DNA from: a virus
Lineage: Duplodnaviria > Heunggongvirae > Uroviricota > Caudoviricetes
DNA: 12,971 bases
Reading direction: 5' to 3' (one strand)
IMG/VR virus record: IMGVR_UViG_2547132278_000011
Location: 1-12,971 of that record
Shown piece after piece: positions 7,740-12,971 of the stretch. The first letter of the stretch is position 1, and the number at the start of each line of letters is the position of its first letter. Under the pieces are notes generated by a model. The model did not search any database, was not told where the DNA came from, and saw only the letters and a list, made by a program, of their open reading frames with translations. The position numbers were made by a program, and so were the translations under genes.

Positions 7740-7967
7740 TCAGTTCAGGTGCCCCCACTCACACAGCCTTTCACCTATCGTATTGTGGATAAGCAACTGT
7801 CGCTCCGTTTCCTCAGTCATAAAATCCTCTCTACTCACATAAATAGGATTTGCAGCATCGCAGAATAGCACGCCTGGAGCCTGCGTCTTAATCACGCACC
7901 CATTTATCAAACAGCTCGCGATGAACACCAGAGGCATCTTTTTGCCGCACTTCATTAACCGTTTCAT
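7740..7967 (-). CDS. Putative o-spanin-like outer-membrane lipoprotein (Rz1-like), overlapping the 3' end of the upstream gene in a different frame
   Basis: From the internal ATG at 7965-7967: MKRLMKCGKKMPLVFIASC... gives a basic n-region, a short hydrophobic core and a lipobox-like IASC. The mature part carries extra Cys residues. Overlaps 7888-7967 of the i-spanin-like gene out of frame. Start uncertain (ATGs also at 7976, 7955, 7937). Confidence 0.4.
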   Translation of the reverse strand: MKRLMKCGKKMPLVFIASCLINGCVIKTQAPGVLFCDAANPIYVSREDFMTEETERQLLIHNTIGERLCEWGHLN

Positions 7968-8139
7968 TTTTGACATCCACTGTGCTTTGAAGTCGTTTTC
8001 TGTCTTCCTGTTTTGCCTTCTCTTCCATTGCTCGTCGCGCCGCATTCCCGCCCATCGTGTAAGCGCCGACAAGAACGAAAAGAACGGCAGCCAGCGTAAT
8101 CAAAGCAACTTTTAGCTTTGTCATCAGGCTGCCTAGCAT
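7888..8139 (-). CDS. Putative i-spanin-like protein (Rz-like): N-terminal transmembrane anchor plus charged helical periplasmic region
   Basis: 83 aa. N-terminal hydrophobic helix LKVALITLAAVLFVLVGAY followed by a highly charged segment (RRAMEEKAKQEDRKRLQ...). ATG 1 nt after the stop of the upstream gene (TAATATG). A nested out-of-frame lipoprotein ORF is typical of overlapped spanin pairs. Confidence 0.45.
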   Translation of the reverse strand: MLGSLMTKLKVALITLAAVLFVLVGAYTMGGNAARRAMEEKAKQEDRKRLQSTVDVKNETVNEVRQKDASGVHRELFDKWVRD

Positions 8140-8140
8140 A

Positions 8141-8833
8141 TTAGACCATCCCTTTCTGGTGTTTTCTTACCTGCGACCAGGCAATGAATCCTGCCACAAC
8201 AATAGTGGCAATACCGAAGATGATGCGTACTGTATCCCCGCTAGAGATATGACCTTGTGCTTTATCCATAGCAGCGGAAACCTGCGGCATAACATCGGCC
8301 AGCTGCGCCAGACCAATACCTGCTGTAACAGTTGCGCCTGCGGTTTCTTTAGTTACAGGAACAGCCTTCACGGTTTTCACCGGCTTAACAACGCCAGCTC
8401 GACGCAGACCTTCCTCAATAACTTCTGCCGCATACCAGGTGTTCAGCGTTTTTAGCGGGCCTCGGCCATTCTCGTGGCGAATGATTGCCTCAACCAAAGG
8501 TCGAAGGATGTCGTAATCATGCAGATCGATGATCATGTCTGCGGTTACACCAACGGCTTTAGACACCTCATTAATGTAGGCGTCAGTATTGTTTTCATTC
8601 GGCGGTGCCCAACGTTCAATAACTTCACGAATGGTATCGATACTTGAGCCGTCTTTTGCGCGACGTTTGTCGTGGTAGGTAATTAGAGTCACCGCCAGCG
8701 CACGAATCCCCCAAACAGGGTCTTTAAACGTGCAAAAGCGCGGTTCGTCTGGATTCGCAACCAGACCTTGCCACGGTGATCCTTTATCAAGATTACCGGG
8801 GTTATTATTACGAATGCCTCTCGGAGTCTTCAT
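8141..8833 (-). CDS. Putative lysis-module protein (possible peptidoglycan hydrolase-like) with a soluble ~200-aa domain and a single C-terminal transmembrane helix; function unconfirmed
   Basis: 230 aa from the ATG at 8831-8833 (AGGAGA 7 nt upstream; the ORF-track start at 8860 is GTG). Begins MKTPRGIRNNNPGNL. C-terminal hydrophobic helix IIFGIATIVVAGFIAWSQV. Sits immediately upstream of the spanin-like pair. I could not assign the catalytic family from sequence alone. Confidence 0.5.
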   Translation of the reverse strand: MKTPRGIRNNNPGNLDKGSPWQGLVANPDEPRFCTFKDPVWGIRALAVTLITYHDKRRAKDGSSIDTIREVIERWAPPNENNTDAYINEVSKAVGVTADMIIDLHDYDILRPLVEAIIRHENGRGPLKTLNTWYAAEVIEEGLRRAGVVKPVKTVKAVPVTKETAGATVTAGIGLAQLADVMPQVSAAMDKAQGHISSGDTVRIIFGIATIVVAGFIAWSQVRKHQKGMV

Positions 8834-8846
8834 CCTTGATCTCCTG

Positions 8847-9170
8847 TTATTGCAGTCCACTTTTTACGCCATACGCGGCTAACCCCAAAAGCAGTGCGGT
8901 AATAATGAACGACGTTATTTTAGAAACAATGCCGCCAAAGAACCCACTTGAGATGGAATCTAACCGGTTAAGGAGTTTGTCCAGATTGGAGTGTTGAATA
9001 CTATGTTGCGCCGGGGTCATATCACCAAAGTAGGTTTTCAGCTGATCATTGACCTCCTGGCCAATTTCTTCACGTAGCTCTTTACCTAATTTGCCAACAA
9101 CCTCCCGAGCAACGATCGCGGCAATACGCTCAACTTGCTCTGTTGTAACGCCCGCCATCTCGTTCGACAT
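8847..9170 (-). CDS. Small tail-anchored membrane protein (possible holin/antiholin-like), function unknown
   Basis: 107 aa from the ATG at 9168-9170 (GGAGG 6 nt upstream; the ORF-track start at 9182 lacks an SD). Soluble charged N-terminal ~85 aa, then a single C-terminal TM helix ITSFIITALLLGLAAYGV. Its stop is 13 nt before the next gene's start. Confidence 0.45.
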   Translation of the reverse strand: MSNEMAGVTTEQVERIAAIVAREVVGKLGKELREEIGQEVNDQLKTYFGDMTPAQHSIQHSNLDKLLNRLDSISSGFFGGIVSKITSFIITALLLGLAAYGVKSGLQ

Positions 9171-9251
9171 GTTTTCCTCCATGAAAAGTCAAATCGGGAT
9201 GGCGGATTTATATCACATTTCACCCTTTTGTTGTAGGTGTGTACTTACCTA

Positions 9252-9485
9252 TCATTCAGCATTGCAACCGATTGATGAGAAAGCACCTACTCCAACCCAT
9301 CGCCAGTTATAGATGCTACCCGCTTTGTATAAGGTATAGTCGTTCACTTTTTTAACAGCATATATGGGTATGACTGTCTCCTGTCCACCAATGATAGCTT
9401 CACCATAACATATAGGTGTCGGCAATTTCTGGCAGCCAGTAAGAGAGAGAACAACAGCTATTGTTAGAAATAATCTTTTCATCAT
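9252..9485 (-). CDS. Small secreted lipoprotein (77-aa precursor); candidate Cor/Llp-like superinfection-exclusion factor
   Basis: MMKRLFLTIAVVLSLTGC has a canonical lipoprotein signal peptide with lipobox LTGC. Small size, and position directly downstream of the tail-fibre/adhesin genes. Starts 7 nt after the stop of the upstream gene. Confidence 0.55.
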   Translation of the reverse strand: MMKRLFLTIAVVLSLTGCQKLPTPICYGEAIIGGQETVIPIYAVKKVNDYTLYKAGSIYNWRWVGVGAFSSIGCNAE

Positions 9486-9492
9486 TTACTCA

Positions 9493-10101
9493 TCAGTTAT
9501 ACAGATTTCTATTTATTACCGGTACTCTGCCATTTACGCTAAAACTATGGCCGCCATTAAGTTGGTTTACGAATATCGAGCTAACAGTATTTCCATATGC
9601 CGCATATCCATAAACCATTGTCATGGCTCCGCCCGGTACTGGAACAGCGAACACATTCGCATATGTTGGGATTATCGCTGGAGGGTAATCAAAAACATGC
9701 CCTCCAGAGCTGTTCCACTCCGTATTATTAAGAAAGGTAAATGAAAGTGGGATATTTGCCGTATTATAGATTTCCTCCCCTTGTGCATTGAAAAAACTCA
9801 TGCCCCAAGTTTCTTTTTTGGCTATACCTTTCGAAAATACGTATATCGTGGCACTAGAGTCGCTACCCTGACCTCCGAAACTGTAAATCACCTGGTTGTT
9901 ACGCACTATTCTGTTGGCTATTAATGAAACAGCTTTCGAATAGGCAACAAAAATAATCGGTGAACGATCTGGAGATATTTTGGTGTTAAACTCTGTCCCG
10001 CCGGACAAAGAAACAACCTGCTTTCTCTGAAAAACGATAGGAGACAAAGAAGGAGACATCCAGACCTTCCCGTCAGATCGATATATCTTGCTTCCGTACA
10101 T
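9493..10101 (-). CDS. Gly/Ser/Thr/Asn/Tyr-rich beta-type protein (202 aa), likely tail-fibre-associated (distal adhesin or accessory); function unknown
   Basis: Composition typical of fibre or receptor-binding domains (GGHSFSVNG, VYGYAAYGN). Its ATG overlaps the stop of the upstream 84-aa ORF by one base (TAATG at 10099-10103). Confidence 0.5.
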   Translation of the reverse strand: MYGSKIYRSDGKVWMSPSLSPIVFQRKQVVSLSGGTEFNTKISPDRSPIIFVAYSKAVSLIANRIVRNNQVIYSFGGQGSDSSATIYVFSKGIAKKETWGMSFFNAQGEEIYNTANIPLSFTFLNNTEWNSSGGHVFDYPPAIIPTYANVFAVPVPGGAMTMVYGYAAYGNTVSSIFVNQLNGGHSFSVNGRVPVINRNLYN

Positions 10102-10355
10102 TATTTTTGAAAAACCAATATGTTTAAATTACCACTAGCTCCAGACCACGAAATGGTATTTCCAGAAACCGTAAGACTTGTGTACTTTCCATTGGTTACG
10201 TCCATTATGTAATAGTCGATTCCCAATCCCGCCTCAACCTCATATGTTCTACTTCCTGAACCAGAGGGAGTAAAATAATCGAGGTAATAAACAGGGGCCA
10301 ACGCATTGACCATCTCCTGTCTTGATGGCGACCAAACCTGTGCACCATAGCTCAT
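10101..10355 (-). CDS. Small beta-rich protein (84 aa) coupled to the downstream 202-aa gene; possibly the N-terminal piece of a split or frameshifted fibre-associated gene
   Basis: ATG at 10353-10355 with AAGGA about 8 nt upstream. Gly/Ser/Thr-rich (TPSGSGSRTYEVEAGLGIDYY...SWSGASGNLNI). Ends in the TAATG overlap with the next ORF. Confidence 0.45.
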   Translation of the reverse strand: MSYGAQVWSPSRQEMVNALAPVYYLDYFTPSGSGSRTYEVEAGLGIDYYIMDVTNGKYTSLTVSGNTISWSGASGNLNILVFQK

Positions 10356-10380
10356 AAATATATCCTTATACTTTTAAGCA

Positions 10381-10403
10381 GGGGCTGGTTTAGCTCCAGC
10401 CCC
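10381..10403 (-). other. GC-rich hairpin (8-bp stem ggggctgg/ccagcccc, 7-nt loop) between the tail-fibre stop and the next gene's ribosome-binding site
   Basis: Read directly from the sequence. It is not followed by a U-tract on the minus strand, so it is more likely an RNA stability or processing element or a partial attenuator than a full terminator. Confidence 0.35.
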
Positions 10404-10415
10404 GATTGAAGTTGT

Positions 10416-12971
10416 TTATTCTTTAGGTGAATTTAACTTCGTTTCAAGCTCCTCAACCCTTTTGGTCAATTGCTGAATATGATGAATGAGTGGTACAACC
10501 AAACGCTCATACATCACTCCTTCAGCGACCATACCATTTGAGGAAATATCTTCTGGAGAATCATTATTTGTTGGTTCACGCCAATGGACATATTGCGGGG
10601 CAATCTCACCAACCTCTTCAGCAATAAGGCCGTAATACCCCCAATCCTTTCGGTCACCTCGACAAATTGAACGATACCAAACAGGTCTTAATGACAAAAG
10701 TTCATCAGCATATCGATCTTGTAATGTTTCAATATCCTTTTTATAGCGCCTTGAAGACGTTGAACGCCAAACTGTATTGATACCTGGGTTTGGATCAATG
10801 TACATATTGGCACCGCTAGTAGTTGTGCCAATATCCCATATAGCAAACCCTCCACTACCGCCTGATTTGACAACCAGTGTTTCAGCAACAATATCCAGGT
10901 TGCCACTATAGCCTGTCAGTGATGATCTGCTTGCATAGGAACTTAGAAGGTTTGCTACCTCTGTTTTCGTGTAAGCATTAAGGTTAGCCGCAGTCAAAGT
11001 TATATCGGCAGAGCCATCAAACGCCACACCAGCAATTTTCCTTGCTGTCTGCAATTTTGTGGCGGTTGCGGCATTACCAGTAGTGTTCTGATTACCAGTT
11101 GTATTCACACCAGGGATTGAATCCTTAGCGGTATATACCTGCGCCCACGCTGACCATGCCGCACCTGTGTAATCTCTTCGGGAGCGAATGAAAACCGGCG
11201 CATGTGCACCGCTCGTACCACTCCAGCCAATAAGCAACTCGCCCTCACCAGCAGCACTCGCACCTTTCATGTGCAATACGTTGCCATACGTGGTCGGGTA
11301 GCTATTGTTGTACGCCTCATACATTTGAATGCCAGCAGTGCCTTGAGTAGAGCCGCTTAACGCCGTAACTCGGCCACGAGATACCAATGTATTAATGTTG
11401 ATATCGCCTGAGCCATCAAACTTAACACCATTGATGTTTCTCGCTGTTTGCAACTTCGTAGCTGTTGAAGCATTACCGTTCAAACTACCATTTACGCCAC
11501 CAGTAACATTTAGTCCATTACCAATGGACACAGCACCGCTGGTATTGTTAATTGTAATCGGTCGCAAACCGTTCCATGAACCTAATGTGTCTCCTGATGC
11601 TGTTAGCAGGAAATATGTGTTCGCCCCATCATTACGGATAAAGAACCCAAAGTTACCGTAAGCAATGCGGAAACCATTTGCATATTTTGAAACGATCTCA
11701 CCAGAAGACGTTAACCCTCCAGATAATGTGCCACCTGAAAGCGGTAATGCTCCTACATCAGAAGCTGTTGGTTTGTTTCTGGTGTTATAAGAACGACGCC
11801 AGCCTGGCGCATAATCACTTCCATTGTACACATAAATAAATTCCGCATTATTAACACCACCATGACCCGATGTTGTTGTCGTTGTAACACGAATAGTGTA
11901 ATGGCTTGTTGCCTTATTACTAAACACCTCAATCACGGAACCAGATAGATCGATCCTACCGCAACCAGTGTCGTCTATATAATTATTGTTGGCGTAAGCC
12001 CATGAGCACCGTGCAATCCAATATTTGTTTGAAAATGCACCCTGATTATTTAGCCACGTTATAAACTGAGCAGTCGTAAATGCTGTTCCGTTACCACTAT
12101 TTAACCATCCGGCGGCAGCGGTTGGTGCGTTTATATCAGCCGGCTGAGGCATAAATCCAGTCGTGTAAACCTGCTCCCAACCACTTTCAAAACCATAGCC
12201 ATCTCTTGAGGAACGGTAGAACAGACCACCATTTTTATAGTGAGCTTTAATTTGAAGCGTACGGCAACTACCTACACCGGTATAAAAGTTGGCAAGAATA
12301 TAACTAGCGCCTGCTCTAGTTACATTGTAAGCACCAGATTCAGCATTCCACGGCACGCCACCATCAGCATCCGCATATGACCCTGTTGCCCTTCTTGCGA
12401 AAGCGGCAACATGCGCAGCGGTTAAAGTGATATCAGTAGAACCATCAAATGGAACACCGGATATTTTTCTTGCAGTCTGAAGTTTTGTAGCAGTTGCAGC
12501 ATTACCAGTGGTGTTCTGATTACCCGTAGTGTTTACACCTGGAAGGTTAATATTTGCAGAACCGTCGAAAACAACTCCACCGATAGATCTTGCCGTCTGC
12601 AATTTCGTGGCTGTACTTGCATTACCATTCAATGAACCAGTTAATCCACCTGTAACAGACAACGGACCTGAAACTGTTCCTCCGGTTGTTGGCAGTGCTC
12701 CAATATCTAACGGCGTCGGTTTCTGATGTGTGCTATACATCGTATAAACAACACCATCGGTAACGCTGGAAGGCTTACTCGCTGAATATGTTGGCGAGGT
12801 ATAAATAGAAACTGTCGCATTTGCAGTACAATCCCAATGGATATTTACACGAGTCGCATAATTGCCAATCTCAACGTAAATATCATATGTATCGCCGGAT
12901 GTGTTGATCCAGGCGAAATTCGTTAATCCGACAGCTGTACGCTTCCACAAAGCACCTGTAATCCCTTTGGG
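10416..12971 (-). CDS. Phage tail fibre protein, 5'-partial (N-terminus beyond the window), with repeated tail-fibre motifs and a C-terminal peptidase S74-type intramolecular chaperone domain
   Basis: The frame is open from the window edge; the ORF-track start at 12950 is a TTG artefact. Four copies of the N-A/T-S/A-TATKLQTAR motif, each followed by ...FDGS...; two copies of a larger module PGVNTTGNQNTTGNAATATKLQTARKI-GV-FDGS-DITLTAA. C-terminal SSRRYKKDIETL ... GLIAEEVGEIAP ... VEELETKL matches the conserved Ser/Lys auto-cleavage region of S74 chaperone domains as I recall it. Confidence 0.9.
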   Translation of the reverse strand, partial: PKGITGALWKRTAVGLTNFAWINTSGDTYDIYVEIGNYATRVNIHWDCTANATVSIYTSPTYSASKPSSVTDGVVYTMYSTHQKPTPLDIGALPTTGGTVSGPLSVTGGLTGSLNGNASTATKLQTARSIGGVVFDGSANINLPGVNTTGNQNTTGNAATATKLQTARKISGVPFDGSTDITLTAAHVAAFARRATGSYADADGGVPWNAESGAYNVTRAGASYILANFYTGVGSCRTLQIKAHYKNGGLFYRSSRDGYGFESGWEQVYTTGFMPQPADINAPTAAAGWLNSGNGTAFTTAQFITWLNNQGAFSNKYWIARCSWAYANNNYIDDTGCGRIDLSGSVIEVFSNKATSHYTIRVTTTTTSGHGGVNNAEFIYVYNGSDYAPGWRRSYNTRNKPTASDVGALPLSGGTLSGGLTSSGEIVSKYANGFRIAYGNFGFFIRNDGANTYFLLTASGDTLGSWNGLRPITINNTSGAVSIGNGLNVTGGVNGSLNGNASTATKLQTARNINGVKFDGSGDININTLVSRGRVTALSGSTQGTAGIQMYEAYNNSYPTTYGNVLHMKGASAAGEGELLIGWSGTSGAHAPVFIRSRRDYTGAAWSAWAQVYTAKDSIPGVNTTGNQNTTGNAATATKLQTARKIAGVAFDGSADITLTAANLNAYTKTEVANLLSSYASRSSLTGYSGNLDIVAETLVVKSGGSGGFAIWDIGTTTSGANMYIDPNPGINTVWRSTSSRRYKKDIETLQDRYADELLSLRPVWYRSICRGDRKDWGYYGLIAEEVGEIAPQYVHWREPTNNDSPEDISSNGMVAEGVMYERLVVPLIHHIQQLTKRVEELETKLNSPKE

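Follow-up and report, generated by a model that had tools for sequence, protein, structure and literature searches.

A modular side tail-fibre gene with ATKLQTAR-type linker repeats and a predicted self-cleaving S74 chaperone in an SSU5/pHCM2-like phage-plasmid

Related fibres and the gene in the window

The L-shaped side fibres of T5 and T5-like phages (4UW8-type; 8hqz) are long homotrimers on a siphovirus-type tail, with an Ala/Ser-rich N-terminal part, a receptor-binding tip immediately before a cleavage site, and a C-terminal S74 chaperone of ~113–133 residues that has a Thr-Ser...Lys(+5) site and a C-terminal helix (PMC4690869). In T5 pb1 the cut falls between Thr1263 and Ser1264 and is assisted by Lys1269, an S1264A mutant blocks cleavage, and the receptor-binding site is masked in the uncleaved form (PMC4690869). 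The fibre described here, whose gene lies at one end of a 12,971-nt stretch of caudovirus DNA (the window), resembles these proteins in its chaperone of the same kind and in the presumed position of its tip, with an Ala/Ser-rich N-terminal part encoded beyond the window edge, and it too would be a long homotrimeric side fibre on a siphovirus-type tail. Sequence similarity is restricted to the chaperone, however; the tip sequence is unrelated, and the shaft is made here of lambda-Stf, Mu-S' and T4-gp34-type modules together with ATKLQTAR linkers.

Other described proteins share parts of this architecture. The chaperones of the K1F endosialidase and the GA-1 neck appendage (MEROPS S74; 3gw6, 3gud) and the MyRF ICA domain (7dc3) have the fold predicted here and the Ser-Lys dyad, and like our domain they form the very C-terminal end of a trimeric fibre or spike, but sequence identity is only 12–21%, and the protein served is here a long modular fibre, not a tailspike enzyme or a transcription factor. 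Two consecutive domains are homologous to Mu S/S' (8ju3, 5yvq), although they stand here in the opposite order, and a gp34-type trimerisation segment also matches Mu S. In Mu the chaperone, U/U', is a protein of its own and a DNA-inversion switch is used; here the chaperone is intramolecular. The lambda Stf-type side fibres of E. coli prophages, with T4 gp34/gp37, have in common with our fibre the domain that we call knob A', the gp34 trimerisation domain, the PF03406 motif, which lies here upstream of the window, and the position downstream of a J-type tail-tip gene. Those fibres end in a collar and a His-box needle and require a separate Tfa or gp38/gp57 chaperone, in contrast to the different tip and the S74 chaperone found here. 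Module swapping at conserved motifs is textbook behaviour of lambda Stf-type and T4 fibres, and was reportedly described in such fibres by Haggard-Ljungquist in 1992, Sandmeier in 1994 and Tetart in 1998.

The side tail-fibre gene occupies positions 10416–12971 of the window on the minus strand (3' part of the gene, 2556 nt; 851 codons plus the stop codon at 10416–10418), and its frame continues beyond the window edge. A Shigella plasmid with 99.9% identity has a fibre open frame of 1432 aa that begins 94 nt downstream of a J-like tail-tip gene, so that the window carries the C-terminal 851 aa of the fibre; the TTG 'start' at 12950 in the ORF list is an artefact, since the gene is truncated by the window edge. 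The fibre N-terminus itself lies outside the window. Uninterrupted fibre frames of 1319–1721 aa are found in nine SSU5-like plasmids, among them that of LF82 (phage Cyrano), and a common upstream ATG forms the tenth codon of the frame in each of the nine. A truncated gene or pseudogene was considered in view of the 978-aa RefSeq CDS and the 844-aa entry of the ORF list, and was rejected because the frame is open over 1432 aa in the near-identical plasmid and over 1319–1721 aa in eight other plasmids of this group, with codon ten as the first ATG of every frame.

The assignment as a tail fibre, made originally from sequence alone, is borne out by matches to PHROG tail-fibre families (E = 0), by the RefSeq annotation (tail fibre protein) and by the place of the gene directly after the J-like tail-tip gene. 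The NCBIfam search matched zero families, and the literature search found nothing specific to this fibre. Genomic position and N-terminal anchor are as in related SSU5/pHCM2-like replicons. Relatives of the full-length fibre were drawn from plasmid and phage collections: the gene matches 291 plasmid records, 18 of them over its full length with 96–99.9% identity, and the latter are ~110-kb non-mobilizable E. coli and Shigella plasmids; phages CMS-2020a and Cyrano match likewise. The region very probably encodes the C-terminal 851 residues of a trimeric, modular side fibre of the L-shaped type, belonging to a ~110-kb SSU5/pHCM2-like E. coli-Shigella phage-plasmid, ending in an S74 chaperone and subject to cassette exchange at its repeats.

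Linker repeats and the domains between them

The modules follow one another along the gene in the order R1-R2-knobA ... R3-knobA'-R4-tip-chaperone, where R1 to R4 are the four ATKLQTAR-type repeats (all features lie on the minus strand). All four were found in frame, at aa 121, 161, 504 and 637 of the 851-aa translation, each as part of a ~26-residue linker motif, GNA(A/S)TATKLQTAR-I-GV-FDGS, and each enclosed in a 77-nt DNA repeat with 71–79% identity to the reference copy. R1 spans 12550–12626 (aa 116–141, GNASTATKLQTARSIGGVVFDGSANI) and R3 spans 11401–11477 (aa 499–524), while R2 (12430–12506) and R4 (11002–11078) lie inside the two copies of a larger module. The spacings of 120, 1029 and 399 nt between successive repeats are each a multiple of three. 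Large module copy 1 (12392–12542, aa 144–194) contains the PGVNTTGNQNTTGN linker and R2, and copy 2 (10964–11114, aa 620–670) contains the PGVNTTGNQNTTGN linker and R4. As the original prediction had it, these are diverged copies, with 75% DNA identity over 151 nt, or 79.7% over 128 nt (blastn E = 1.7e-28). Their proteins share the sequence PGVNTTGNQNTTGNAATATKLQTARKI(S/A)GV(P/A)FDGS(T/A)DITLTAA (z = 32, Smith-Waterman against shuffles) and are identical at 42 of 51 residues (~82%, by a count of the two 51-residue sequences). Self-BLASTP of the fibre protein returned no off-diagonal matches, and DNA self-BLAST and Smith-Waterman alignment were used instead. Between the two large modules 20 of the 29 differing codons are synonymous, which points to purifying selection on the peptide without recent homogenisation of the DNA.

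All sequence elements named in the original prediction are present within about 30 nt of where it had placed them, with similarity far above chance. The expectation that the Pfam tail-fibre repeat model, PF03406 (Phage_fiber_2), would recognise the ATKLQTAR repeats failed: it has a single match (69 bits) upstream of the window, at TTKGVVKLSS...LAATPKAVK, and no Pfam family matched the repeat-bearing segments at E <= 10.

Knob A (12162–12404, aa 190–270) ends in WEQVYT at aa 265. The segment aa 190–287 is homologous to residues 324–421 of the 8ju3 chain of Mu S/S' (9e-22), and both profile and solved-structure homology place it with the Mu S'-type knob/gp37_C (PF12604), the Pfam match being borderline. 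An internal globular domain (11763–12137, aa 279–403) is homologous to residues 201–324 of 8ju3 (2e-36), and within it aa 294–384 share 40% identity with the domain at the C-terminal end of the fibre of LF82/Cyrano. A T4 gp34-type trimerisation domain (11475–11849) is assigned by Pfam and by solved structures of T4 gp34 and Mu S: Gp34_trimer (PF21446) matches aa 375–474 with 104.6 bits against a cut-off of 27 (6e-30), the T4 gp34 structures 4uxe and 5nxh match aa 408–499 at about 1e-21, and Mu S matches up to aa 499 as well. Knob A' (11127–11384, aa 530–615) ends in WAQVYT at aa 609 and is widespread in E. coli prophage side fibres; its predicted fold matches the fibre knob regions of T4 gp34, R2 pyocin and Mu. 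No Pfam model matches knob A' or the aa 279–403 domain.

A related W-x-VYT domain had been expected after each large module. That arrangement holds for R2, which leads into the WEQVYT knob, but not for R4, which is preceded by the WAQVYT knob that follows R3. The two knobs, both of which finish in the motif (F/Y)-x-RS-x-RD...W-x-QVYT, are remote relatives rather than recent copies, with an hhalign probability of 76% over only 42 alignable columns. Beyond R4 lies the predicted distal tip of the mature fibre (10758–10961, aa 671–738), presumed to be the receptor-binding end. It is variable among relatives, with a break in homology at 10934, and has low confidence in the monomer model.

The C-terminal S74 domain

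The last 113 residues of the protein (10419–10757, aa 739–851) form a Peptidase_S74 intramolecular chaperone domain, which is followed immediately by the stop codon. The predicted signature is in place: SSRRYKKDIETL starts at aa 739, GLIAEEV is present, and PF13884 matches aa 739–795 over profile positions 1–57 of 58 with a modest score of 28.0 bits against a cut-off of 22 (E = 2.7e-6). The same family is present in most proteins homologous to the tip-plus-chaperone segment. Cleavage is predicted at the T738|S739 bond (S739 codon, 10755–10757), with K744 (codon 10740–10742) as the predicted general base, which gives the T-S-x4-K pattern of the T5 pb1 site. Residues S739, S740 and K744 do not vary among 52 homologues with identities of 30–66%. 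A phmmer search of the PDB with the whole protein did not reach the S74 structures, and for this reason a profile of homologues was needed; this profile reached 8hqz, a solved L-shaped tail fibre, at its C-terminus (2.5e-9), and the Ser and the Lys(+5) are aligned.

Chaperones of this family combine a mixed alpha/beta part with a long C-terminal helix that builds the trimeric coiled coil. The AF2 model has pLDDT values of 92–98 across the domain and a long C-terminal helix at aa 821–847. The best Foldseek match in the PDB is the MyRF ICA domain 7dc3 (3e-5, probability 1.00, TM 0.46), followed by the GA-1 chaperone 3gud (probability 0.99) and the endosialidase chaperone 3gw6, the phage chaperones having E = 0.03–0.1; these scores are moderate because a monomer model was compared with intertwined trimers. 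Profile score, active-site pattern, predicted fold and extreme C-terminal position agree with membership of the S74 family.

Exchange of fibre modules among phages and plasmids

Comparison with the fibre genes of related replicons bears on the proposal that the repeats are substrates for host-range recombination. Relatives are 92–97% identical to our gene on one side of a repeat and have an unrelated or different cassette on the other. Knob A and knob A' occur as isolated, repeat-bounded cassettes of 73–88% identity in IncY- and IncHI1B-typed plasmids, where the fibre comes after different tail genes, and knob A is found without knob A' in 9g and lambdoid phages. The slot between R3 and R4, which holds knob A' here, holds an A-type knob in LF82/Cyrano. 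In the segment upstream of R2, identity to the lambdoid phage phi458 is 97%. At the distal end four versions exist among relatives, namely the chaperone, a separate Tfa, a chaperone plus gp38 adhesin, and a chaperone-less end domain. Fourteen of 25 clusters of homology ends fall within the 23% of the gene that is made up of repeats or W-x-VYT motifs (binomial 4e-4, the clusters being not fully independent events), and this clustering could arise in part from alignments that extend into a conserved stretch and end at its far edge. Exchange between different phages and plasmids is therefore documented by slots with alternative cassettes and by breakpoints that cluster at the repeats, which upholds that part of the original prediction. 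The copies within the gene are poor substrates: recent exchange between them is unlikely, because their longest uninterrupted identical runs of 8–14 nt are too short for efficient RecA-type exchange and because of the synonymous differences described above. A Mu-like invertible segment, considered on account of the Mu S' homology, was rejected; there are no inverted repeats of at least 18 nt in 9000–12971, and no recombinase was matched among the window ORFs scanned against Pfam or PHROGs.

The repeats might instead be only structural units of the shaft, turns of a trimeric β-structure conserved by folding, in which case homology would end there as an effect of alignment and not of preferred recombination. 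This reading, which we regard as rather unlikely, would account for the match of the repeat profile to 6e3c (E = 0.002), which falls on the trimeric C-terminal stalk of the Dec protein of phage L, for the 20 of 29 synonymous codons and the short exact runs between copies, and for the 11 of 25 breakpoint clusters that lie outside the repeats, several of them at 10490, 10934, ~11900–11944 and 12110. It does not explain near-identity on one side of a repeat next to a foreign cassette on the other, nor the two knobs that alternate in the R3-R4 slot, a mosaic that is the classical signature of motif-based exchange. Structural constraint and exchange at the repeats are in any case compatible and not mutually exclusive. 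The same similarities raise the question of whether the large modules and their W-x-VYT knobs arose by duplication within the gene, as the original prediction implied, or whether cassettes were captured one after another from different fibres. The ~82% protein and 79.7% DNA identity of the modules, the shared terminal motif of the knobs and their hhalign probability all speak for duplication, which we nevertheless judge improbable: the knobs align across just 42 columns, the order is R2-knobA in one case and knobA'-R4 in the other and so does not fit a simple tandem duplication, each knob occurs separately elsewhere bounded by the same repeats, and the near-identity to phi458 upstream of R2 points to assembly from separate sources.

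Of a different kind is the idea that the S74-like domain has become a permanent structural cap and no longer cleaves. The Pfam score just 6 bits over threshold would be in keeping with this, but the Thr-Ser and Lys(+5) are invariant in the 52 homologues down to 30% identity, the site aligns with that of the solved L-shaped fibre, and an uncleaved form masks the receptor-binding site in T5 (PMC4690869); we consider a permanent cap very improbable.

On the preferred reading, that of a self-cleaving chaperone at the end of an exchangeable shaft, the fibre would behave like T5 pb1 and the K1F endosialidase, with three chaperone domains as the nucleus for trimerisation and for the folding of the distal tip. 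Once a correct trimer had formed, Ser739, activated by Lys744, would cut the Thr738-Ser739 bond, and the chaperone would be released and the putative receptor-binding tip unmasked. The shaft behind it is a series of independent modules (N-terminal domain, R1-R2, knob A, Mu-S'/LF82-end-like domain, gp34-type trimerisation domain, R3, knob A', R4 and tip) that the four linker copies join. Since many fibres that are otherwise unrelated conserve these linker repeats, the repeats probably serve as in-frame junctions for the exchange of cassettes among phages, prophages and phage-plasmids, with a change of host range as the probable outcome.

A more speculative suggestion, to which we give little credence, is that the fibre grew by accretion of formerly terminal receptor-binding modules, so that it would carry serial sites, with linkers that stack and swap specificities and with four maturation strategies at the locus. 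Its basis is that aa 294–384 resemble the extreme C-terminus of the LF82/Cyrano fibre and that knob A is of a kind found in the C-terminal part of Mu S'. If the internal domains still bind surface glycans, several receptor-binding sites would stand in series on the fibre, and the ATKLQTAR linkers, if this is true, would be a natural plug-and-play system for stacking as well as swapping specificities. The maturation strategies in question are an intramolecular chaperone, a separate Tfa, a chaperone plus gp38 adhesin, and none that is recognisable.

No single element of this fibre is new, as modular fibres, exchange at motifs and S74 chaperones are all well established; it is an ordinary but clear case of swappable modules, conserved linkers and a chaperone predicted to cleave itself off. 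Phage-plasmids of the SSU5 type occur commonly in E. coli, Shigella and Klebsiella, and resistance genes can be among their cargo (PMC9600943); their host range is poorly understood. The locus provides a clear natural catalogue of fibre cassettes that can be exchanged, of the defined in-frame junctions between them and of different solutions for the chaperone, and this catalogue could guide host-range prediction and fibre engineering.

The fibre gene and its replicon

The fibre is encoded at 10416–12971 by the sole long reading frame of this stretch, which lies on the minus strand, stops at 10416–10418 and is still open at the window edge; the window accordingly carries only the last 851 residues of a longer protein (residue n corresponds to window position 12971-3(n-1)). 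This part matches tail-fibre families of PHROGs with E = 0. The region is matched by 291 plasmid records, 18 of them full-length at 96–99.9% identity (these 18 all being ~110-kb non-mobilizable plasmids of E. coli or Shigella), and by the phage-deposited records CMS-2020a and Cyrano (the LF82 plasmid). The source replicon belongs to the SSU5/pHCM2-like phage-plasmids, for which background is available (PMC9600943).

The Shigella sonnei plasmid p38 is 99.9% identical. Its RefSeq 'tail fiber protein' is annotated at 978 aa; the frame (NZ_CP099775.1, L001 9001–13299, minus strand; window 12951–12971 and beyond) is really 1432 aa long, with its ATG 94 nt downstream of a J-like tail-tip gene. In eight other SSU5-like plasmids the frame is likewise uninterrupted, for 1319–1721 aa, and the same upstream ATG stands at codon ten of each. 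The fibre part beyond the window contains an Ala/Ser-rich segment and a single Pfam PF03406 motif. Since annotated starts lie just ahead of this motif, the annotation omits the Ala/Ser-rich N-terminal ~450 aa.

Elsewhere in the window, a 567-aa KAP-family P-loop NTPase (PF07693; 3445–5148, minus strand), sited between replication and partition genes, matches the PADLOC candidate defence family PDC-S49 (5e-22). The otherwise near-identical plasmid L001 has a different, plus-strand gene of 1053 nt at this position, which therefore looks like a variable cargo slot. The lysis cassette (7740–8860, minus strand) combines a 239-aa protein resembling endolysins (phrog_873) with an Rz-like spanin (7888–8139), which a 110-aa ORF at 7740–8072 overlaps in another frame; this ORF could be an embedded Rz1-type partner.

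Repeats, knobs and internal domains

The four ATKLQTAR copies of the original prediction are present at aa 121, 161, 504 and 637 (R1 to R4), within 77-nt DNA repeats at 12550–12626, 12430–12506, 11401–11477 and 11002–11078 that are 71–79% identical to the reference copy. The larger module, claimed as two diverged copies of about 75–80% DNA identity, lies at 12392–12542 and 10964–11114, with 75% identity over 151 nt and 79.7% over 128 nt (E = 1.7e-28); local alignment of the two copies as protein gives z = 32 against shuffles. The similarity of these repeats and modules is far above chance. The module order along the gene is R1-R2-knob A ... R3-knob A'-R4-tip-chaperone. A W-x-VYT domain was predicted to follow each copy of the large module, which holds for the first (R2, knob A) and fails for the second, where knob A' precedes R4. 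Nor are the ATKLQTAR repeats the Pfam phage tail-fibre repeat: they have no Pfam model, and PF03406 occurs once, outside the window. A profile that includes them finds the trimeric stalk at the C-terminus of the phage L protein Dec, in keeping with units of a fibrous linker.

Knobs A (aa 190–270) and A' (aa 530–615) share a C-terminal motif, (F/Y)xRSxRD...WxQVYT, with WEQVYT at aa 265 and WAQVYT at aa 609. They are only remotely related, with a Smith-Waterman z of 2.9 over 22 residues and an hhalign probability of 76% over 42 columns. Pfam identifies Gp34_trimer at aa 375–474 (6e-30) and, at borderline level, gp37_C at aa 202–292. Among solved structures, Mu S/S' (8ju3) is matched by aa 279–403 at its residues 201–324 and by aa 190–287 at its residues 324–421, so that the two shared domains stand in opposite order in this fibre, and aa 384–499 match Mu S and T4 gp34. 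The internal domain at aa 294–384 (11820–12092) shares 40% identity (E = 2e-17) with the C-terminal-most domain of the LF82/Cyrano fibre (L004 2112–2500) and may once have been a terminal domain that bound a receptor.

The S74 chaperone and alternative distal ends

As predicted, the C-terminus carries an S74 domain (Pfam Peptidase_S74, PF13884, aa 739–795; 28 bits, the cut-off being 22), beginning with SSRRYKK at aa 739. In an alignment of 52 homologues of aa 663–851 (30–66% identity), S739, S740 and K744 are invariant in all 52, and the homologue profile matches the C-terminus of 8hqz, an L-shaped tail fibre of solved structure (2.5e-9), where Ser and Lys(+5) align. The AlphaFold model is confident across the domain (pLDDT 92–98) and ends in a long helix; the PDB entries that it matches best are the MyRF ICA domain and the chaperones of GA-1 and endosialidase. 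The predicted site, T738-S739-x4-K744, parallels that of T5 pb1, in which Lys1269 assists cutting of the Thr1263–Ser1264 bond, the S1264A mutation prevents the cut and a chaperone left uncut masks receptor binding (PMC4690869). By analogy, a cut at Thr738 would end the mature fibre there and release the chaperone as a 113-residue fragment. In Escherichia phage BEBK14-like genomes of ~50 kb (L015/L016 2749–5696), the tip-plus-S74 unit is a stand-alone 231-aa gene, 48–49% identical to aa 663–851, which comes after a 653-aa and a 92-aa gene and is unfused to a long fibre.

Four versions of the distal end occur among SSU5-like plasmids: the tip with S74 chaperone found here; a Mu-like end with a separate Caudo_TAP chaperone; an S74 chaperone followed by a gp38-type adhesin gene; and the LF82 end domain, the one resembling internal aa 294–384, in a fibre with no recognisable chaperone. 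In the relative NZ_CP081792.1 (L003 2385–3130), what remains of the S74 gene, its final ~25 codons at 99.5% identity to the window, directly adjoins the Caudo_TAP assembly gene downstream, a scar showing that a cassette replaced an S74-type end. In other relatives (L005 206–4732 and L009 347–3847), a fibre that matches Gp34_trimer three times and carries an S74 domain precedes a T2-type gp38 gene annotated 'receptor-recognizing protein', a T-even-style adhesin system in a phage-plasmid with lambda J- and L-like tail genes.

Three small minus-strand genes follow the fibre at 9252–10355, encoding proteins of 84 aa (phrog_557, 'outer membrane protein'), 202 aa (phrog_425, 'membrane associated protein', moron class) and 77 aa (phrog_1119, a homologue of the superinfection-exclusion protein Cor). 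The first two accompany the S74-type fibre; in the Tfa variant the 202-aa gene is shortened while its 84-aa neighbour is intact, and both are absent at LF82-type and gp38-type loci. Because Cor blocks FhuA, its homologue would hint at FhuA as a putative terminal receptor.

Mosaic relatives and proposed recombination at the repeats

Alignment of the gene with 13 fetched related loci, together with endpoints from plasmid and phage matches, placed the ends of homology in 25 distinct clusters. Repeats and W-x-VYT motifs, 23% of the gene, contain 14 of these (binomial 4e-4), although alignments tend to stop where a conserved stretch ends and some of the clusters do not represent independent events. 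As far as R3, CMS-2020a and a Tfa-type plasmid share 94% identity with the gene, and past R3 they are unrelated to it; the lambdoid phage phi458 shares 97% identity between the window edge and R2. The knobs occur as separate, repeat-bounded cassettes (73–88% identical) in IncY- and IncHI1B-typed plasmids, whose fibre comes after different tail genes; knob A without knob A' is common to phage 9g and lambdoid phages, and in LF82/Cyrano an A-type knob occupies the R3–R4 slot. All inter-repeat spacings are multiples of three, so exchange at any repeat would keep frame.

The proposal that the repeats are recombination substrates is favoured by the breakpoints between relatives, but within the gene uninterrupted repeat-to-repeat identity reaches only 8–14 nt, and 20 of the 29 codons that differ between the large modules do so synonymously. 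Neither figure hints at recent exchange between the copies or at their homogenisation, and the repeats inside the gene are weak substrates for one another. A Mu-like inversion switch is excluded, as 9000–12971 contains no inverted repeat of at least 18 nt.

The original interpretation is supported, with corrections to strand and truncation, module order, the distant knob relationship and the Pfam identity of the repeats. All of this is of kinds already known: a side tail fibre of mosaic build that carries an intramolecular S74 chaperone and comes from a common phage-plasmid lineage. The natural set of cassettes and chaperone strategies that alternate at this one locus is useful as a resource rather than surprising.
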